Shown here: in pieces, positions 7,160-35,187 of the stretch
How the letters are laid out: each line of letters starts with the position of its first letter
How positions within the stretch are numbered: position 1 is the stretch's first letter
Virus record (IMG/VR): IMGVR_UViG_3300028602_000031
Direction: 5' to 3' (one strand)
Length of the DNA: 42,444 bases
Source: a virus
Notes under the pieces: model-generated
The model's input: only the letters and a program-made list of their open reading frames with translations
Database searches by the model: none
What the model was told of the DNA's origin: nothing
Position numbers and translations under genes: made by a program

Positions 7160-7330
7160 CTGAAAGAGGAAGGATAGTGACTACTCCCATCACTGAAGTG
7201 ACGGGCATCTTCCGATTTTACGGTCAGATTGTAATCCCAATCTGAGAATATTAATTGAAGCATTAAGATCACGGTCAATAGACAGACCACAGAAAGGACA
7301 GTTATGAGTTCTTTCTGATAGGTCTTTTTC
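7160..7330 (-). ncRNA. Predicted TnpB omega/reRNA (scaffold overlapping the tnpB 3' end, plus flank-derived guide TATCCTTCCTCTTTCAG)
   Basis: Known architecture of IS200/IS605 right ends; 5' boundary is a guess. Confidence 0.55.
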
Positions 7331-8411
7331 TACCAACATCCCACAACTTGAACACATTTTTGAGGTATTCTTAGGATCAACAAGAACCACTTTTCTACCA
7401 GCATTTTCAGCTTTGTAGGAAGTATAAGTTACAAGTTTACTCCAAGCTGCATCAAGAATGTGCTTTGCAAGATTGTGATTTTTTGTCATGTTCTTAATGT
7501 TAAGATCTTCAAAACAGATTATACCGTAATTATTAATGAGTTCTTTACTGAATTTTTGAGTAAAATCTTCTCTCTTGTTAGCAATCCTTTCATAGGCTCT
7601 ACACAACGTTTTAAGGCATTTCTGTCTTTCAGGAGTACCTTTTTCGGCTTTAGAAAGTTTTCTGTTAGCTCTTGCAAGTGCCTTTTCTTCTTGAATATAG
7701 AATCTAGGATTGGGAACATAAGTTCCATTCGATAATGTAGCAAAGGAGAGGATTCCAACATCAATACCTACTGACTTATCAGAAGGTTGAAGTGGTTGAT
7801 AAGTTTCAGCATCAGTAAGTATTGAAACAAACCATTTACCAGTTGAAGTTTTCCTGATAGTTAAGCGTTTAATATTTCCTTCAAGTGGTCTATGCAATTT
7901 TATTTTTATATCTCCGATTTTGGAGAGAGTTAACATATTGCTATTTAAGGAAAAACCAGATTGCAAGTAGGTAATACTGTCATACCAACCTTTACCTTTA
8001 AAACGGGGGTATCCTGCTTTTTCTCCGGCTTTAACTCTACGGAAAAAAGCTTGAAAAGCAAGATCAACGCGCATAGTCACATCTTGAAGTGTATGAGAAT
8101 GAACGGTTTTCAATTCTGGTTTATCTTTCTTCCAGATAGGAATCATCTTTTTAGAATCATAATAACTGATTCTTTTCTGTTCAGATTCCCATGCATTCTT
8201 TCTTAGTGCTAGAGTTTCATTATAGACCCATCTACAGAGTTCCAAAGTAGAGTTAAGCTTTGTAACTTGTGATTTTGTTGGATAGATTCTATAACGATTC
8301 ACTTTAGGCATAATAAATAATATAGTCATTTTACCTAAATAAAGGTTACTATATTGAAGTTGACGGCTGTATCCCGCCATTAAAATGACGGGGATTAGCC
8401 TTAGACGCTAC
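7177..8411 (-). mobile_element. IS200/IS605-family non-autonomous element (tnpB only)
   Basis: Right end with hairpin CCCATCAC-TGAA-GTGACGGG (7186-7205), ending ...GTAGTCAC on the minus strand; imperfect left-end hairpin 8371-8395; no tnpA; left boundary approximate. Confidence 0.85.
7190..8311 (-). CDS. tnpB: RNA-guided endonuclease TnpB
   Basis: N-terminal YRIYPTKSQ HTH; RuvC I GIDVG, RuvC II FEDL, CSSC...CPFC zinc finger, RuvC III DRDLNA all intact; start re-called to ATG 8311. Confidence 0.95.
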   Translation of the reverse strand: MPKVNRYRIYPTKSQVTKLNSTLELCRWVYNETLALRKNAWESEQKRISYYDSKKMIPIWKKDKPELKTVHSHTLQDVTMRVDLAFQAFFRRVKAGEKAGYPRFKGKGWYDSITYLQSGFSLNSNMLTLSKIGDIKIKLHRPLEGNIKRLTIRKTSTGKWFVSILTDAETYQPLQPSDKSVGIDVGILSFATLSNGTYVPNPRFYIQEEKALARANRKLSKAEKGTPERQKCLKTLCRAYERIANKREDFTQKFSKELINNYGIICFEDLNIKNMTKNHNLAKHILDAAWSKLVTYTSYKAENAGRKVVLVDPKNTSKMCSSCGMLVEKDLSERTHNCPFCGLSIDRDLNASINILRLGLQSDRKIGRCPSLQ

Positions 8412-8415
8412 TAAA

Positions 8416-9135
8416 TTATTCCGAACTCTCTTTCTCGTTAATCCCTATCCACTTAACTAACTAACATTCATCATGCAATCCAAACCACTGTGGATAAACA
8501 GTATTCGCATCTTCAAGGTAATCGAGAACTTCTATCCCGTTAAAAAAATCATCACTTGCAGTACAACCACCGCTTCCTTCTCCAATATACAAGATCTTTC
8601 CTTCCGGATTCAATTCTGTGAAAAGTTCCGCAGCTTCCCTAGCCATCGGAGATTCGTACATTGCCCAACATGTAAGCAGAAAATCGGCTTTGTATTTACG
8701 AATAGCACCCCTGAAATCAAGGTTTTCAACTGGATAATATGATTTCCAATGAAAACTATCTTTTTTATGCCATGAATAATCATCCGTTGATATTATATTG
8801 ACTCCAGCTTCATGGAGGTACTTTGCTACAAGTCCTGTACCGGCTCCTACTTCAAGAACTGTTTTATCTCCGATGACTTGTTTCATTGCTCTAGCCCATT
8901 CTAAAGTAGGAGTCACAAAACCAATAACGGATCTTGCAACACTGAAATATGAGAAAGCGTCCCGACGCCTAAGTAATTTTGTATCCACACTCTCAACAAG
9001 CCTTTCATTAAGATGGAAATATAGGAATGATTTAATTTCGTTAGAATTTGCCTCGAATGAATTATATGTATGTGGATATGTATGTGAATATCCATCGAAC
9101 TGATCCCATGCTTTTTTAATTTCAGTAAAGGTCAT
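8416..9135 (-). CDS. Class I SAM-dependent methyltransferase with a probable in-frame amber (TAG 8461-8463) read-through
   Basis: VLEVGAGTG motif I, TDDYSW, YIGEGSGGCTA; past the TAG the frame continues LVKWIGINEKESSE to TAA 8416-8418. Confidence 0.7.
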
Positions 9136-9137
9136 CC

Positions 9138-9593
9138 TTATTCGCCCCGCTTTACCCATTTGTCTTTCTTCCAATCAAAATGATGTTTTGTATCCATCAA
9201 GAATTCTAACCACAAACATTCCATGCTCTTGTTTTTGTACCATTTATAACCTCTCTCTTTTACATATGCAGTGAACTCTATCAGTATAAAAACATTCGAA
9301 GAATCACTTTCTTTTCGTATGGCGAGAGATTGAAGTTGTTTTTGATTTGGAAGAGGTCGCAACGTTTCTAAATTCTCTAAATAGGTATAACCAACTTCTC
9401 CAATGAATTTGGCGTGTATTATTCTGGGGTCACTCCATACATCAAACTCAACTACCATCAGTTCTTTTTCCCTTTTTAGAGAGAATGCTTTATCTCCAGC
9501 TTTCCATTCCCAATTTTCAAAGAAATTAGATGGGAGTGCGAGGATCATCTTTTTATAAAGTTCGTTCATAAAAATCACCAATTTGTTTCCCAA
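9138..9593 (-). CDS. Hypothetical protein
   Basis: 151 aa ORF in the operon; LRPLPNQKQLQ...CLWLEFLM pattern. Confidence 0.6.
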   Translation of the reverse strand: MGNKLVIFMNELYKKMILALPSNFFENWEWKAGDKAFSLKREKELMVVEFDVWSDPRIIHAKFIGEVGYTYLENLETLRPLPNQKQLQSLAIRKESDSSNVFILIEFTAYVKERGYKWYKNKSMECLWLEFLMDTKHHFDWKKDKWVKRGE

Positions 9594-9979
9594 TGAGTTT
9601 TTATTTTCTGATATTTAGGAGACAACTTTTTAATCTTGTGGAACTTCTGATCTCTACACTGAAGATCGAAAAACATATCTTCTGCATTAAACGAGGAAAT
9701 CACTACACTGTGAGTCATCTTTCCTTTTTTATGCATCATTTTTGTAGAATTTGAATTCCATCTGAAAGACGAATAATCAATGGTTTCTACAAATCCATCT
9801 TCGTGTATCTCTTTTATTTCAACTTCAGAAGTGTAACCGTTCTTACCTTTAACTCTAAAGAAATCGCCAATTTTAAAATTGCATTTCTTTTTATTCCACG
9901 ATATGATTTTATTTTCTTTATCGAAGTTTGCAGAGATGTAAGAGTAAGTACCGTTTGGATTTAATCTACAGTTTAACAT
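9575..9979 (-). CDS. Hypothetical protein
   Basis: 134 aa ORF with AGGAG SD. Confidence 0.55.
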   Translation of the reverse strand: MLNCRLNPNGTYSYISANFDKENKIISWNKKKCNFKIGDFFRVKGKNGYTSEVEIKEIHEDGFVETIDYSSFRWNSNSTKMMHKKGKMTHSVVISSFNAEDMFFDLQCRDQKFHKIKKLSPKYQKIKTHWETNW

Positions 9980-10285
9980 TTTACACAGTCTCCTTTTTTG
10001 AGTCTATTTTCCACCTTATTAAATGCAACAAAACAAAGAATGATATCTGAGAATACACAAGAACGGCATTCGTTAGCAGATCCATTTGATACAAAACGTA
10101 AAAAAATACTGCCCATATTAAACAGTATAAAAAGTATGTCTCGTTTTTCATTTTAGAACTCTCCTAAAGTCCTCTCTTTTCTCTTTGAATATCTGAATCT
10201 TCCGAGTGGAACTTCTGCAATTACCTCTCCAAATTCATCTCTGATTTTATCCAACTGTCCAGTTTCTTTCGCATATGCAATTTTA

Positions 10286-10501
10286 TCATTGTATAGGCTC
10301 ATTTTCGTTCCTCCATCTCTCGATCTCTTCTCGAATCGCGTATGGAAGTTGAGCCGTTATATCCCACTTGCTAGACCCATCTTCATGTGGGAAATCTCCA
10401 AAATACATCATGATCCTGTATTTTTCCTGCTTCACCGAAAGTCCATCTATACCCTTTATTAAAGATCTTGCTTCTCTAAGAGTTACCATATTTTTATTCA
10501 C
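10286..10501 (-). CDS. Hypothetical protein
   Basis: 71 aa ORF coupled to its neighbours. Confidence 0.5.
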   Translation of the reverse strand: MNKNMVTLREARSLIKGIDGLSVKQEKYRIMMYFGDFPHEDGSSKWDITAQLPYAIREEIERWRNENEPIQ

Positions 10502-10700
10502 TCTCCTTCTTTAACACAATCATTATTGCCGTACATCCTGCACCTTTCTTTACTTTTGAAAAGACTCCTTCAACGTCAGACAGTTTCCCCACTTGAACCG
10601 TAAGCACTGCGTCAGTAGGGTATTTTAGTAATCCCCCGCTAGAAGGAATTACGATTTCTTTACCAGAATCTAAAAGCATTTCTTTTGATTTACGTTCCAT
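10494..10700 (-). CDS. Hypothetical protein
   Basis: 68 aa ORF; TTATTTATAC TATA box upstream (about 10722-10731, minus strand). Confidence 0.55.
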   Translation of the reverse strand: MERKSKEMLLDSGKEIVIPSSGGLLKYPTDAVLTVQVGKLSDVEGVFSKVKKGAGCTAIMIVLKKESE

Positions 10701-10767
10701 ACCAAGTAATTACGCACCATAGTATAAATAACTTGTGCCGTATAAAGTAAATAAAAAAAGTAAATTG

Positions 10768-10983
10768 TTAAAATTTCTTTCCCGTATATTGCCAATACTG
10801 CACTTCATCGTCAGCTTCTGAGAATTTGGTATTAAGAAATCCTTTGTCTACAAGTGCTTTCAAGGTAGTTGGAAAAACATGCTTAATTTCGCATTCAGTA
10901 AACCATCTTTTTGGATACGATTGATTTAGCTTGAAAATTCTTAACAATGCTGTTTTCTATGCTCTTGACAATCTCCCTTCCAT
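10768..10983 (-). CDS. Small winged-helix-like protein with in-frame TAG at codon 9 (recoded gene or pseudogene)
   Basis: Manual translation MEGRLSRA*KTALLRIFKLNQSYPKRWFTECEIKHVFPTTLKALVDKGFLNTKFSEADDEVQYWQYTGKKF; aligns with 6630-6848; GAGGA SD; absent from the ORF track. Confidence 0.6.
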
Positions 10984-11298
10984 GCAAGATTCCTCTGTTG
11001 AAGGAATTCCGTTGTCATCGTACATCAATTTACGCTTCTGTGTTTCCTTGACATCCCAAACACCAAGACTTCTTAACATCTTCCAGGTAACAATTACTTA
11101 AAAATCGCATTTCGGTTTGGAGAAAGAGTAACACATTTAATATATTTATAATTCAGCATTTTAAAAAAAGTTTATATATTAAGAACAACTTGGTAATATA
11201 AGATCAGTATCACTTTTTCTGAAAAACGGGGCATATATAAAGCGGGACTGAGAAAAAACGGCTCTTGTATGCGAACAAAGAAAAACGGATAAGAAGGA

Positions 11299-11396
11299 GA
11301 GGGAAAGACACCACTCTTTCCCTCAGTCGTCGCTGGACACCACTCCAGCTTAACGGATTTAAACCACCGAATTCGATCTCAATGAGATCTTATTCG
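11299..11396 (+). ncRNA. Structured RNA or leader: two hairpins with identical CACCAC loops plus a third hairpin
   Basis: GAGGGAAAGA-CACCAC-TCTTTCCCTC (11299-11324), GCTGGA-CACCAC-TCCAGC (11332-11349), CGAAT..GATCTC-AAT-GAGATC..ATTCG (11368-11396); TATA-like boxes upstream at about 11170 and about 11232. Confidence 0.5.
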
Positions 11397-11413
11397 ACAA
11401 GAGGTACAATAAC

Positions 11414-11467
11414 ATGCTCACACATGTTCTGTACATTGGTTCTATTGTTAAGTTCTTTTATAAATAA
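11414..11467 (+). CDS. Putative 17 aa hydrophobic small peptide (MLTHVLYIGSIVKFFYK)
   Basis: GAGGT SD at 11401-11405 with an 8 nt spacer, matching other viral start contexts. Confidence 0.3.
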   Translation: MLTHVLYIGSIVKFFYK

Positions 11468-11701
11468 GTTTCCTAATATATCATTAGAGAATCAATAGCC
11501 GTAAAATTTTATAAAAATCACCCGATCATGTTTTTTTCGCACACTGTATTTGAATTGAGTCTGTGTAGAAAAGACAGAACGGTACTTTTTTGAGGAGATA
11601 TTAAGCTTTTTTCGAGAATATTTGTGTTAAGAGATATGCGGAACGTGCCGCGACTCGGTGTAAAAAAGAAGTATATATATTTTACGTAGAAAAAAAAAGG
11701 A

Positions 11702-18863: not shown

Positions 18864-19201
18864 TGAAAATCGAAGTGTATCTCTGTAATATGTGCCAGAA
18901 AAAAATCCCATGTATTCTACCAAAAAACGTAGGTGGAACAATCAAAGAACCATACAAGATAAAGCCCTGGAACTGGGAAGAAGAAATATGTTCATGCCCA
19001 TACGTAGAAGCTATGGCAGCAGACTTCAAGCTTACAGAAATTGAAGCTACCGAACTTATAAAATATTTTGCAAATCCCTGTGAAAACTATTTCCTGACTC
19101 CGATGTGTGATGCAAGGGGCGGTATATGCCCGAAAGAGTGCTACGGAAACATAGAGGTATGTATGCAGAACGTAGGCGTTCAGAGAAGCATTAGAAAATA
19201 A
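18863..19201 (+). CDS. Cys-rich hypothetical protein
   Basis: TAATG overlap at 18863; multiple Cys. Confidence 0.55.
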   Translation: MKIEVYLCNMCQKKIPCILPKNVGGTIKEPYKIKPWNWEEEICSCPYVEAMAADFKLTEIEATELIKYFANPCENYFLTPMCDARGGICPKECYGNIEVCMQNVGVQRSIRK

Positions 19202-19208
19202 AAGAGGT

Positions 19209-19553
19209 ATGAACATGCACGTATCAAGAGAAGTTTTTTCATTAAGAGTAAACCCCGAAATGTATATCGGAATGACGTGCCCCAACGTCAAACTCGAAAG
19301 CACGAAGACTCTAATTGAAAAATTAAGAGAGATTAATAAGAAAGATCCCGAATTCTGCTATATGTGTGAAAGGGATTGGTTTGGAAATGTTACATGGAAT
19401 TTTTCTTACTCGGTAAAAGAATGTTTTGAACACGCTAAACAGTTAATAATTGAAGACGCAAAAGAAGACAGAAGGCGTGATGGCATCCCAGATGATGATA
19501 TTTACGAGAAGGTAAGTATATTTAAAGACGAATGCATGTGCCCATTTTTATAA
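19209..19553 (+). CDS. Hypothetical protein
   Basis: 114 aa ORF with GAGGT SD. Confidence 0.55.
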   Translation: MNMHVSREVFSLRVNPEMYIGMTCPNVKLESTKTLIEKLREINKKDPEFCYMCERDWFGNVTWNFSYSVKECFEHAKQLIIEDAKEDRRRDGIPDDDIYEKVSIFKDECMCPFL

Positions 19554-34110: not shown

Positions 34111-34719
34111 TAATTATCAATAGACATCATGCAATAATTATTTATTATTATAGGTATTTAATAATAAGATGCATAACCACCGAGACACCACACAGCAGAC
34201 TCTTGTATTTTGGTCGAAAACAGGAACTCAAATACCTACTTTTGTTATAGTTGCAAATGCTGAAGGAATCATAAAAATAAATGAGGATGTTAGTATATAA
34301 ACGAACGGATTTTGAGTATTTAAAGTGTTAGAGGAAAAACGTTATCAGTTGGATAGTATCTTTATGATACTATGTGGAAATAGTTAATTTAGAAAGGTAT
34401 AGACTATACACTGTCTAAACTTATCTTTCCCGTTCTCTAGTAATTTCTAACTCTAACATGACTTTTAAGGCACTTTAGAAGCTCACTATTAAACTTTTAT
34501 AACGATTTGGTACGTTTACATAGACAAAAATAAAAACTTAACTACAGAGCTTAGATTATCTTTGGTGCTATTTCAAAATAATTTGAAATGACCGATTTAA
34601 CCTATATGAAAGTAATATACGATACACCAAATAGCAACCTTTATATATATGGTGTACTATATAGTATATTGTAGCAGGATAATGTTGTCCTGACTCAAAA
34701 GATCAAAAGAAAAAGGAGA

Positions 34720-35187
34720 TTGAAAACTATGGGACTTGACATGGATTTAATTAAACGTTATTACATTGGTGCAGAATATGAACATAACAAAATAACTGGT
34801 GTATGTGATATTTTTTCAAATGGAGAACGGCTAGATATTGATTTTAGGCATATACAGTACATCGAAACAGGTTGTATCTACTGGAGGAAGGCGAATATGA
34901 TCCATAAATGGTTCGTGGATCACTGTCAGGATGGGGAAGACGACTGTAAGCCTTATTATGTGAGTTCAAAACAGCTATGTGAGCTTCTTAATGCATGTCT
35001 AAATATAAAATCAAATCCTGAATTGGCAAGAGAGATTCTGCCTACTCAGGAAGGGTTCTTCTTTGGAGGAACAGACTACGATGAGGATTATTTTTCCGAC
35101 ATAGAAGACACGATAAAAAAACTGAGTATGCTTAATCTCATGGGAGAGGATTATAGTTTTGACTACTACTATCAGTCGTCTTGGTAA
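34720..35187 (+). CDS. Conserved phage hypothetical protein
   Basis: MGLDM...YWRKANMIHKWFV...LPTQEGFFFG...YYQSSW pattern of a widespread phage family; TTG start after AGGAG. Confidence 0.7.
   Translation: MKTMGLDMDLIKRYYIGAEYEHNKITGVCDIFSNGERLDIDFRHIQYIETGCIYWRKANMIHKWFVDHCQDGEDDCKPYYVSSKQLCELLNACLNIKSNPELAREILPTQEGFFFGGTDYDEDYFSDIEDTIKKLSMLNLMGEDYSFDYYYQSSW

Follow-up and report, generated by a model that had tools for sequence, protein, structure and literature searches.

Does an in-frame TAG near the beginning of a viral regulator gene represent a codon that is put to use, or a mutation that is tolerated in a host able to read it? This question is raised by a small minus-strand frame in a stretch of viral DNA of 42,444 nucleotides (IMG/VR record IMGVR_UViG_3300028602_000031; this whole stretch is referred to as the window). 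The frame runs over 72 codons from position 10983 to 10768, reads MEGRLSRA*KTALLRIFKLNQSYPKRWFTECEIKHVFPTTLKALVDKGFLNTKFSEADDEVQYWQYTGKKF* and contains a single internal stop, the TAG at 10957-10959. In a preliminary description of the locus the TAG had been regarded as a second case of amber decoding in the window, by which expression of a winged-helix (wHTH) protein would depend on pyrrolysine (Pyl) in an all-or-none fashion; a CAG-to-TAG transition turning the gene into a pseudogene had been named as the alternative. Here, we have compared the gene with its relatives, with the alleles that occur in public metagenomes, and with the usage of TAG in the remainder of the virus.

Results

Reading frame and start of the gene

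Translation confirmed the frame as it had been described, with GAGGA at 10995-10991 preceding ATG 10983 by 7 nt and no interruption apart from the TAG. Also as stated before, the gene is missed by ORF calling, since table 11 recovers just a 59-codon ORF that starts at TTG (10768..10947). The frame is open further upstream, to ATG 11025 and to ATG 11079, and comprises 103 codons from the latter. In 11 of 13 distant relatives the protein begins with M-[YNT]-[DE]-x and then an acidic stretch, which aligns with MYDD at ATG 11025 of the window, while the 18 residues that precede this methionine (Met19 of the form starting at ATG 11079) are without counterpart in the distant relatives. Because of this agreement, ATG 11025 is regarded as the likely start; the gene would then comprise 85 codons, the TAG being codon 23 (Table 1). 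The earlier placement of the TAG at codon 9 holds if translation starts at ATG 10983, but codon 23 is the likelier position. ATG 10983 with its GAGGA is a possible second start; the short family members P0019, P0020 and P0001 begin near this position, and three near relatives have Val there (presumably GTG). The gene heads a cluster of small genes, and a long intergenic region lies before it.

A separate observation concerns the ORF at 10286-10501. A 25-nt region at 10483-10508 that comprises a Shine-Dalgarno sequence and an ATG (GGAGAGTGAAT...ATGGTAA) matches sites of five Methanosarcina genomes at 96% identity, which suggests that this ORF starts at ATG 10488 rather than at GTG 10501.

Table 1. 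Position of the winged-helix gene, of its candidate starts and lesions, and of further genes of the window discussed in the text.
Feature	Position	Strand	Remarks
Paralog P0001, same wHTH family, 72 aa	6630..6848	+	Gln7, encoded by CAA, at the homologous position
IS605-type TnpB gene	7190..8380	-	Pfam; 82-91% amino-acid identity to copies of Methanosarcina spp.
Methyltransferase gene with the only other in-frame TAG of the window (8461-8463)	8419..9174	-	Trp in the closest relative
Winged-helix (MarR-like) protein gene, likely 85 codons, one TAG inside	10768..11025	-	ATG 11025 to TAA 10770-10768
Site of a 1-nt deletion in other populations, absent from the window	10816	-	Frameshifts the last 15 codons
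TTG, possible restart giving a 59-aa N-terminally truncated protein	10945..10947	-	Four codons past the TAG; no Shine-Dalgarno sequence
In-frame TAG	10957..10959	-	Codon 23 of 85, 9 of 72 or 41 of 103; position of the invariant Gln
Alternative internal start ATG 10983 with GAGGA	10981..10995	-	Start chosen in the preliminary description
Upstream ATG	11077..11079	-	Taken as the start of near relatives (103 aa) in gene calls; probably not the genuine one

Protein family and predicted structure

A word-indexed search identified seven near relatives of 93-99% identity, which fall into two clusters, one formed by P0002 and five further members and the other by P0003. An exhaustive phmmer search against 1.84 billion representatives returned 14 proteins; E was <= 1e-10 for nine, and identity was 39-56% for twelve. 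The position of the TAG is occupied by Gln in 7/7 near and 12/12 distant relatives as well as in the paralog (all proteins from gene calls), and likewise in each of the 15 aligned members of the family alignment (28-56% identity). Conservation of the TAG in related sequences, which had been proposed as a check of amber decoding, was thus not observed: the codon is retained in none of the 19 relatives. Only six columns of the family are invariant, which are Gln23, F42, E46, T54, L58 and T81 (85-residue numbering). Since Gln at this position is invariant and none of the relatives keeps the TAG, the latter is, as judged from the sequences, a derived change at a constrained residue, and a mutation rather than a programmed codon. 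Compared with intact relatives of 93-99% identity, the window therefore carries one disabling change, the TAG at the invariant Gln.

The proposed kinship with the paralog on the plus strand, which was said to have Gln at the matching site, is borne out at the level of profiles. Alignment of the paralog to a 12-member family profile by hhalign gave a probability of 97.5% and an E-value of 7e-12, with Gln7 opposite the TAG; the pairwise BLASTP comparison with the frame was not significant (E 0.39).

Structural modeling using AlphaFold2, built on the 15-sequence alignment, yielded a pLDDT >90 over residues 21-85. The model consists of a helix (21-36), a bridge or short strand (42), a short helix (44-46), a further helix (52-60) and two strands (64-68 and 76-80) forming a β-hairpin, and displays the topology H1-strand-H2-H3 (recognition)-wing. 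Gln23 is predicted to be located at the N-terminal start of helix 1, and as a residue at a helix end it is probably exposed to the surface. Among the best 30 Foldseek matches in the PDB, almost all belong to the MarR family (probability 0.97-1.0, TM 0.50-0.57, about 71 residues), the best neighbours being AdcR, MftR, PecS, MarR and OhrR. The best PDB profile match, to the recognition helix and wing of AdcR, is weak (E 0.014), and searches of Pfam at E-values up to 1 and of PHROG returned no family for the protein. The wHTH label given earlier is thus supported at the level of the fold, without a Pfam or PHROG match. Taken together, the locus represents a real gene encoding a small winged-helix protein of MarR-like type, which is probably a DNA-binding transcription regulator. 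The core of MarR-family regulators such as AdcR (5jls), MftR (8ylg), PecS (8ylh) and MarR (3bpv), helix-strand-helix-helix-wing, is likewise predicted here. Unlike these proteins, however, the viral one has only 65 folded residues, lacks the dimerisation helices and carries a disordered acidic N-terminal tail.

Collection scans did not find the gene elsewhere in IMG/VR, nor in JGI metagenomes, GTDB genomes or five Methanosarcina genomes, and GenBank phages gave no DNA match to it. CRISPR spacers from 59 Methanosarcina genomes, compared with positions 10400-11400, showed short weak matches only, none of them in a repeat array. No RNA runs are listed among the public runs that contain the stretch.

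Alleles of the gene in natural populations

The stretch is present, as a whole or in part, in 20 public runs from 11 studies on wastewater, bioreactor, landfill, freshwater and manure samples. Logan contigs of four of these runs from four studies (X1, X2, X3 and X5) were aligned to positions 9900-11600 of the window. In X3 and X5, which are freshwater and landfill runs from two studies, contigs covering the site (X3 record 22, 10927-11056; X5 record 31, 10927-11029) carry the TAG, and their sole difference from the window is T>C at 10966, a synonymous change in a Ser codon. A contig of X2 has the same start and the same 10966C as these TAG-bearing contigs, from which the TAG in this run was deduced. 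Based on word depth at 10966, the TAG haplotype accounts for about 45% in X2, 65% in X3 and 77% in X5. As TAG contigs with 10966C recur across runs, the TAG is real and widespread, and it predates at least one further substitution.

Beside the TAG haplotype a more divergent one (10984A, 10997T, 10999C) occurs in X1, X2 and X3, while X5 has part of it (10997T, 10999C). This haplotype agrees with the Gln-bearing proteins. The population accordingly appears to be polymorphic at the site, a point that had been put forward as a check. Several runs contain contigs that stop at 10956 and contigs that begin at 10927. Such ends are as expected from a polymorphism at 10957; the Gln allele may therefore be CAA instead of CAG, and so may the ancestral codon.

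Among the variants listed for the 85-codon frame, 24 of 26 are synonymous, and so are 21 of the 22 listed 3' of the TAG; for the listed variants, this excess is significant at P <1e-8 even against an expectation of 34% synonymous changes. The pattern indicates that the protein is under strong purifying selection across lineages. The listed variants, nearly all synonymous, are also by an approximate count far denser in the wHTH gene (10789-10999) than in the neighbouring small genes, and might approximately be described as old alleles of a constrained protein within otherwise near-identical flanks. With regard to the surroundings, contigs of X1, X2, X3 and X5 depart from the window past 11178 with identical 30 letters, and contigs of X2 and X5 depart from it before 10136; both positions are shared mosaic break points, which bracket a cassette of small genes that includes the wHTH gene.

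A further lesion of the same gene, a deletion of one nucleotide at 10816, circulates in other populations. The word depth of this allele is 18.1 of 34.7 (52%) in X1, 38.3 of 38.3 (100%) in X2, 11.2 of 25 (45%) in X3 and 0 of 48 in X5. It reproduces protein P0003 exactly, replaces the last 15 residues by 34 unrelated ones and results in the loss of the conserved wing strand Y..YTGK. The frame of the deletion allele continues into the start of the next gene, and this allele is the sole form in X2, a bioreactor run. The only X2 contig across 10169-10881 carries the deletion, and about 45% of the depth upstream belongs to the TAG haplotype; both lesions are thus very probably located on the same genomes in X2, as judged from the depths of short unitigs with no contig spanning both. 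In the window itself the 62 codons past the TAG are intact, and the 3' parts in X3 and X5 are identical to it. In addition, one X3 contig joins 10837 to 11123 with a single T in between, skipping 285 nt; with a flank of 30 nt the joint is weak, and it hints at an allele in X3 that is devoid of the first two thirds of the gene together with its starts.

With a frameshift allele at hand, the loss of the gene by a CAG-to-TAG transition, offered before as the alternative to amber decoding, fits at least as well as the latter. The change need not have been a single CAG-to-TAG step, as the original codon may be CAA.

Host and usage of TAG

The window is a virus-like element with genes for a Gp3-like factor, a prim-pol, a helicase, ArdC and TnpB. 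The closest copies of the latter reside in Methanosarcina genomes, and in all four of these genomes that were searched, a profile search detected PylS above the NCBIfam cut-off. The sequence comparisons point to Methanosarcina as very probably the host.

TAG is avoided as a stop codon by the virus. Among its 60 main genes, TAA is used 38 times, TGA 21 times and TAG once, whereas TAG makes up 17.9% of the out-of-frame stop triplets (P ~1e-4 for one TAG-ended gene in 60). This lone TAG 'stop' is that of the methyltransferase gene at 8461-8463. The closest relative of the encoded protein, P0022 (91% identity), has Trp at this site, where Ser, Tyr, Thr, His or Trp occur in more distant relatives. 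Read-through past the TAG adds 14 residues, which align with the relatives. The codon appears to be the result of a TGG-to-TAG change. Two other candidates for in-frame TAGs were rejected: that at 34588-35187 is located in a TATA-rich leader upstream of GGAG-ATG 34729, and that at 19107-19553 is likewise in leader sequence and not coding. Translation of the ORF at 34720-35187 probably begins at ATG 34729, which follows the GGAG.

As the two in-frame TAGs replace Trp and Gln, a code in which TAG stands for Gln is disfavoured, and random sense-to-TAG mutations in an amber-suppressing host are favoured. The presence of PylS in the hosts, the avoidance of TAG stops and the occurrence of a second in-frame TAG render read-through of the UAG as pyrrolysine physically likely. 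No cis element is needed for the insertion of Pyl (PMC8211752). For the 126 nt surrounding and following the UAG, the predicted folding is no better than that of shuffled sequences (z = +1.03), and no PYLIS-like element was found in them. A control comparing TAA or TGA with TAG in ORF pairs that can be joined by read-through of a single stop gave counts too noisy to use. Of the proposal of a second amber-decoding case, the translation of UAG as Pyl is thus plausible in light of PylS, TAG-stop avoidance and the methyltransferase TAG, while its programmed nature does not agree with the lack of the codon in all 19 relatives.

Discussion

We consider it somewhat better than an even chance that the TAG defines a segregating allele, in which the function of a conserved but dispensable regulator is lost or reduced and which is leaky in a Pyl-decoding host, and that it is not a programmed recoding. 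According to this model, the codon for the invariant Gln at the N-terminal end of helix 1 would have mutated to TAG in the strain of the window. The UAG would then partly terminate translation after 22 (or 8) residues, in competition with its decoding, and would partly be read by tRNA-Pyl to yield an 85-residue protein with Pyl in place of Gln23. Since tRNA-Pyl and the release factor compete for the UAG in Methanosarcina (PMC8211752), the proposed all-or-none dependence on Pyl is too strong. It is almost certain that the UAG does not act as a clean stop here, and some full-length Gln23-to-Pyl protein is probably made. That this protein is functional we regard as the minor of the two outcomes, though by no means a negligible one: Gln23 is one of six invariant residues, and the read-through product is therefore probably crippled. 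The amber allele might thus act as a loss- or strong reduction-of-function mutation, i.e. a natural amber mutant on a natural suppressor host. The occurrence of at least two disabling alleles, the TAG and the frameshift, at high frequency would indicate that the gene is conserved in the long term and dispensable in the short term. A point against a crippled allele is that no decay has occurred on the haplotype of the window 3' of the TAG; the 62 intact codons fit a functional read-through protein equally well. Another is that the TAG allele is so frequent in three metagenomes, which could mean that it bears no cost.

A functional read-through protein would be expected if the TAG were a neutral pyrrolysine singleton, i.e. 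if the UAG were read efficiently as Pyl, the Gln23-to-Pyl protein were normal and the allele were selectively equivalent to the Gln allele, as has been described for Thg1 of Methanosarcina acetivorans. We hold this to be a serious possibility, albeit a doubtful one. It would agree with the PylS of the host lineage and the avoidance of TAG as a stop by the virus, with the TAG allele as the major haplotype in X3 and X5 along with a linked synonymous change, with the intact frame past the TAG in the window, and with the predicted position of residue 23 at the end of a helix, probably at the surface. Moreover, Methanosarcina is among the genera with many internal-TAG genes, and Pyl sites outside the methyltransferases are mostly singletons that are possibly neutral (bioRxiv 10.1101/2024.09.30.615893). 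However, an invariant Gln argues for a specific role, in which a bulky lysine derivative is an unlikely substitute. In addition, the frameshift loss-of-function allele is equally frequent, so that the frequency of an allele is no evidence of its function, and in X2 the TAG probably co-occurs with the frameshift. It might further be speculated that the early UAG was selected as a switch, by which the regulator is made only when Pyl-tRNA is abundant, e.g. during growth on methylamines. An early UAG would provide the largest contrast between on and off, the gene is the first in a small-gene cluster after a long intergenic region, and the TAG allele is widespread. Such a role is nevertheless quite improbable, as the TAG is kept in no relative and occupies an invariant instead of a permissive residue, no stimulatory structure is found downstream (z = +1.0), the Pyl cassette is expressed constitutively in Methanosarcina (PMC4153887), and the frameshift allele coexists. 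If true, the regulator with its modified helix 1 would be produced only in proportion to charged tRNA-Pyl, by way of which a viral regulatory decision would read the methylamine metabolism of the host, and no protein of a virus before it would have been shown to require the 22nd amino acid.

Termination-reinitiation over short distances occurs in archaea, and an in-frame TTG lies 9 nt past the stop. Translation that ends at the UAG might resume at this TTG 10947 and result in a 59-residue protein whose acidic tail is missing and whose helix 1 is shortened by its initial six residues. This course of events is quite improbable, since the TTG is not preceded by a Shine-Dalgarno sequence, the product would be devoid of the invariant Gln23, of Ala26 and of a part of helix 1, and none of the relatives begins at this position. 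It is very improbable that the wild-type protein is produced by a suppressor tRNA-Gln(CUA) reading TAG as glutamine, as in the gut phages with genetic code 15, even though the TAG coincides exactly with a Gln position: the 42-kb window contains no tRNA gene, the other in-frame TAG replaces Trp, two in-frame TAGs stand against the dozens typical of recoded phages, and the host has an amber decoder of its own. For these reasons a phage recoded from TAG to Gln was rejected. Finally, the TAG is one base away from a sense codon and might have arisen by an error of sequencing or assembly in the window. The chance of this is close to negligible, as the same TAG is present in contigs of X3 and X5 with a different allele at 10966 and, as deduced from the identical contig start, in X2.

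The population data show that the amber allele of this virus, whose host probably suppresses UAG, has not been purged and reaches majority frequency in several unrelated anaerobic habitats. In Methanosarcina, where TAG stops are kept at 4-5% and the Pyl cassette is always on, an in-frame amber has been described to become 'a stable mutation' (PMC4153887). The allele and the Trp-to-TAG change of the methyltransferase both support the view that Methanosarcina viruses live under an ambiguous UAG. This matters for gene calling, as table 11 splits or misses such genes, and bears on code evolution, namely on the origin of new Pyl positions. The case alone reveals no new mechanism, yet a gene of 255 nt with natural Gln, TAG and frameshift alleles might serve as a cheap handle on UAG read-through in vivo.

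Comparison with known systems

Our literature searches found no paper on Pyl codons in a virus gene, and the word 'virus' is absent from the preprint of Kivenson et al. on internal-TAG genes. Viruses of Pyl-decoding archaea have been reported to avoid TAG stops, in a study of smacoviruses and Methanomassiliicoccales (PMC6336856). This avoidance is mirrored here by the single TAG-ended gene among 60, but the published study covers stop usage alone, whereas in the present virus TAG is located inside two reading frames. The Pyl codons of mtmB, mtbB and mttB differ from the TAG studied here in that they are conserved among orthologs, in contrast to 0/19 relatives of the wHTH gene. Classical amber mutants of the phages T4 and lambda grow on supD, supE or supF strains of Escherichia coli. 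The situation suggested here is similar, as a nonsense codon in a viral gene meets a UAG-reading tRNA of the host and a substituted product is partly restored. In the present case, however, the suppressor would be the natural tRNA-Pyl of a wild host, which inserts the 22nd amino acid, and the mutant has arisen and spread in nature.

The closest parallels are found among cellular genes. As far as recounted in PMC8211752, Thg1, the tRNA-His guanylyltransferase of Methanosarcina acetivorans, contains pyrrolysine (Heinemann et al. 2009). Thg1 and the 'Category 1' singletons of Kivenson et al. (bioRxiv 10.1101/2024.09.30.615893) share with the wHTH gene a lineage-specific in-frame TAG at a site that carries an ordinary residue in relatives, a function outside methylamine metabolism, a (here probable) Pyl-decoding setting and, on the simplest view, an origin by mutation that is tolerated through suppression of the UAG. 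Similarly to 'Category 1' genes, relatives of the wHTH protein, in our case metagenomic proteins rather than UniProt entries, align both before and after the TAG (residues 1-22 and 24-85), and read-through adds 62 residues. Unlike in these cases, we deal with a viral gene in which the replaced residue is invariant and the TAG polymorphic, and of which an independent frameshift allele is circulating. Thus, when set against Thg1-type genes, the comparison of alleles and relatives would suggest that loss of function is here at least as likely as the neutral insertion of Pyl.
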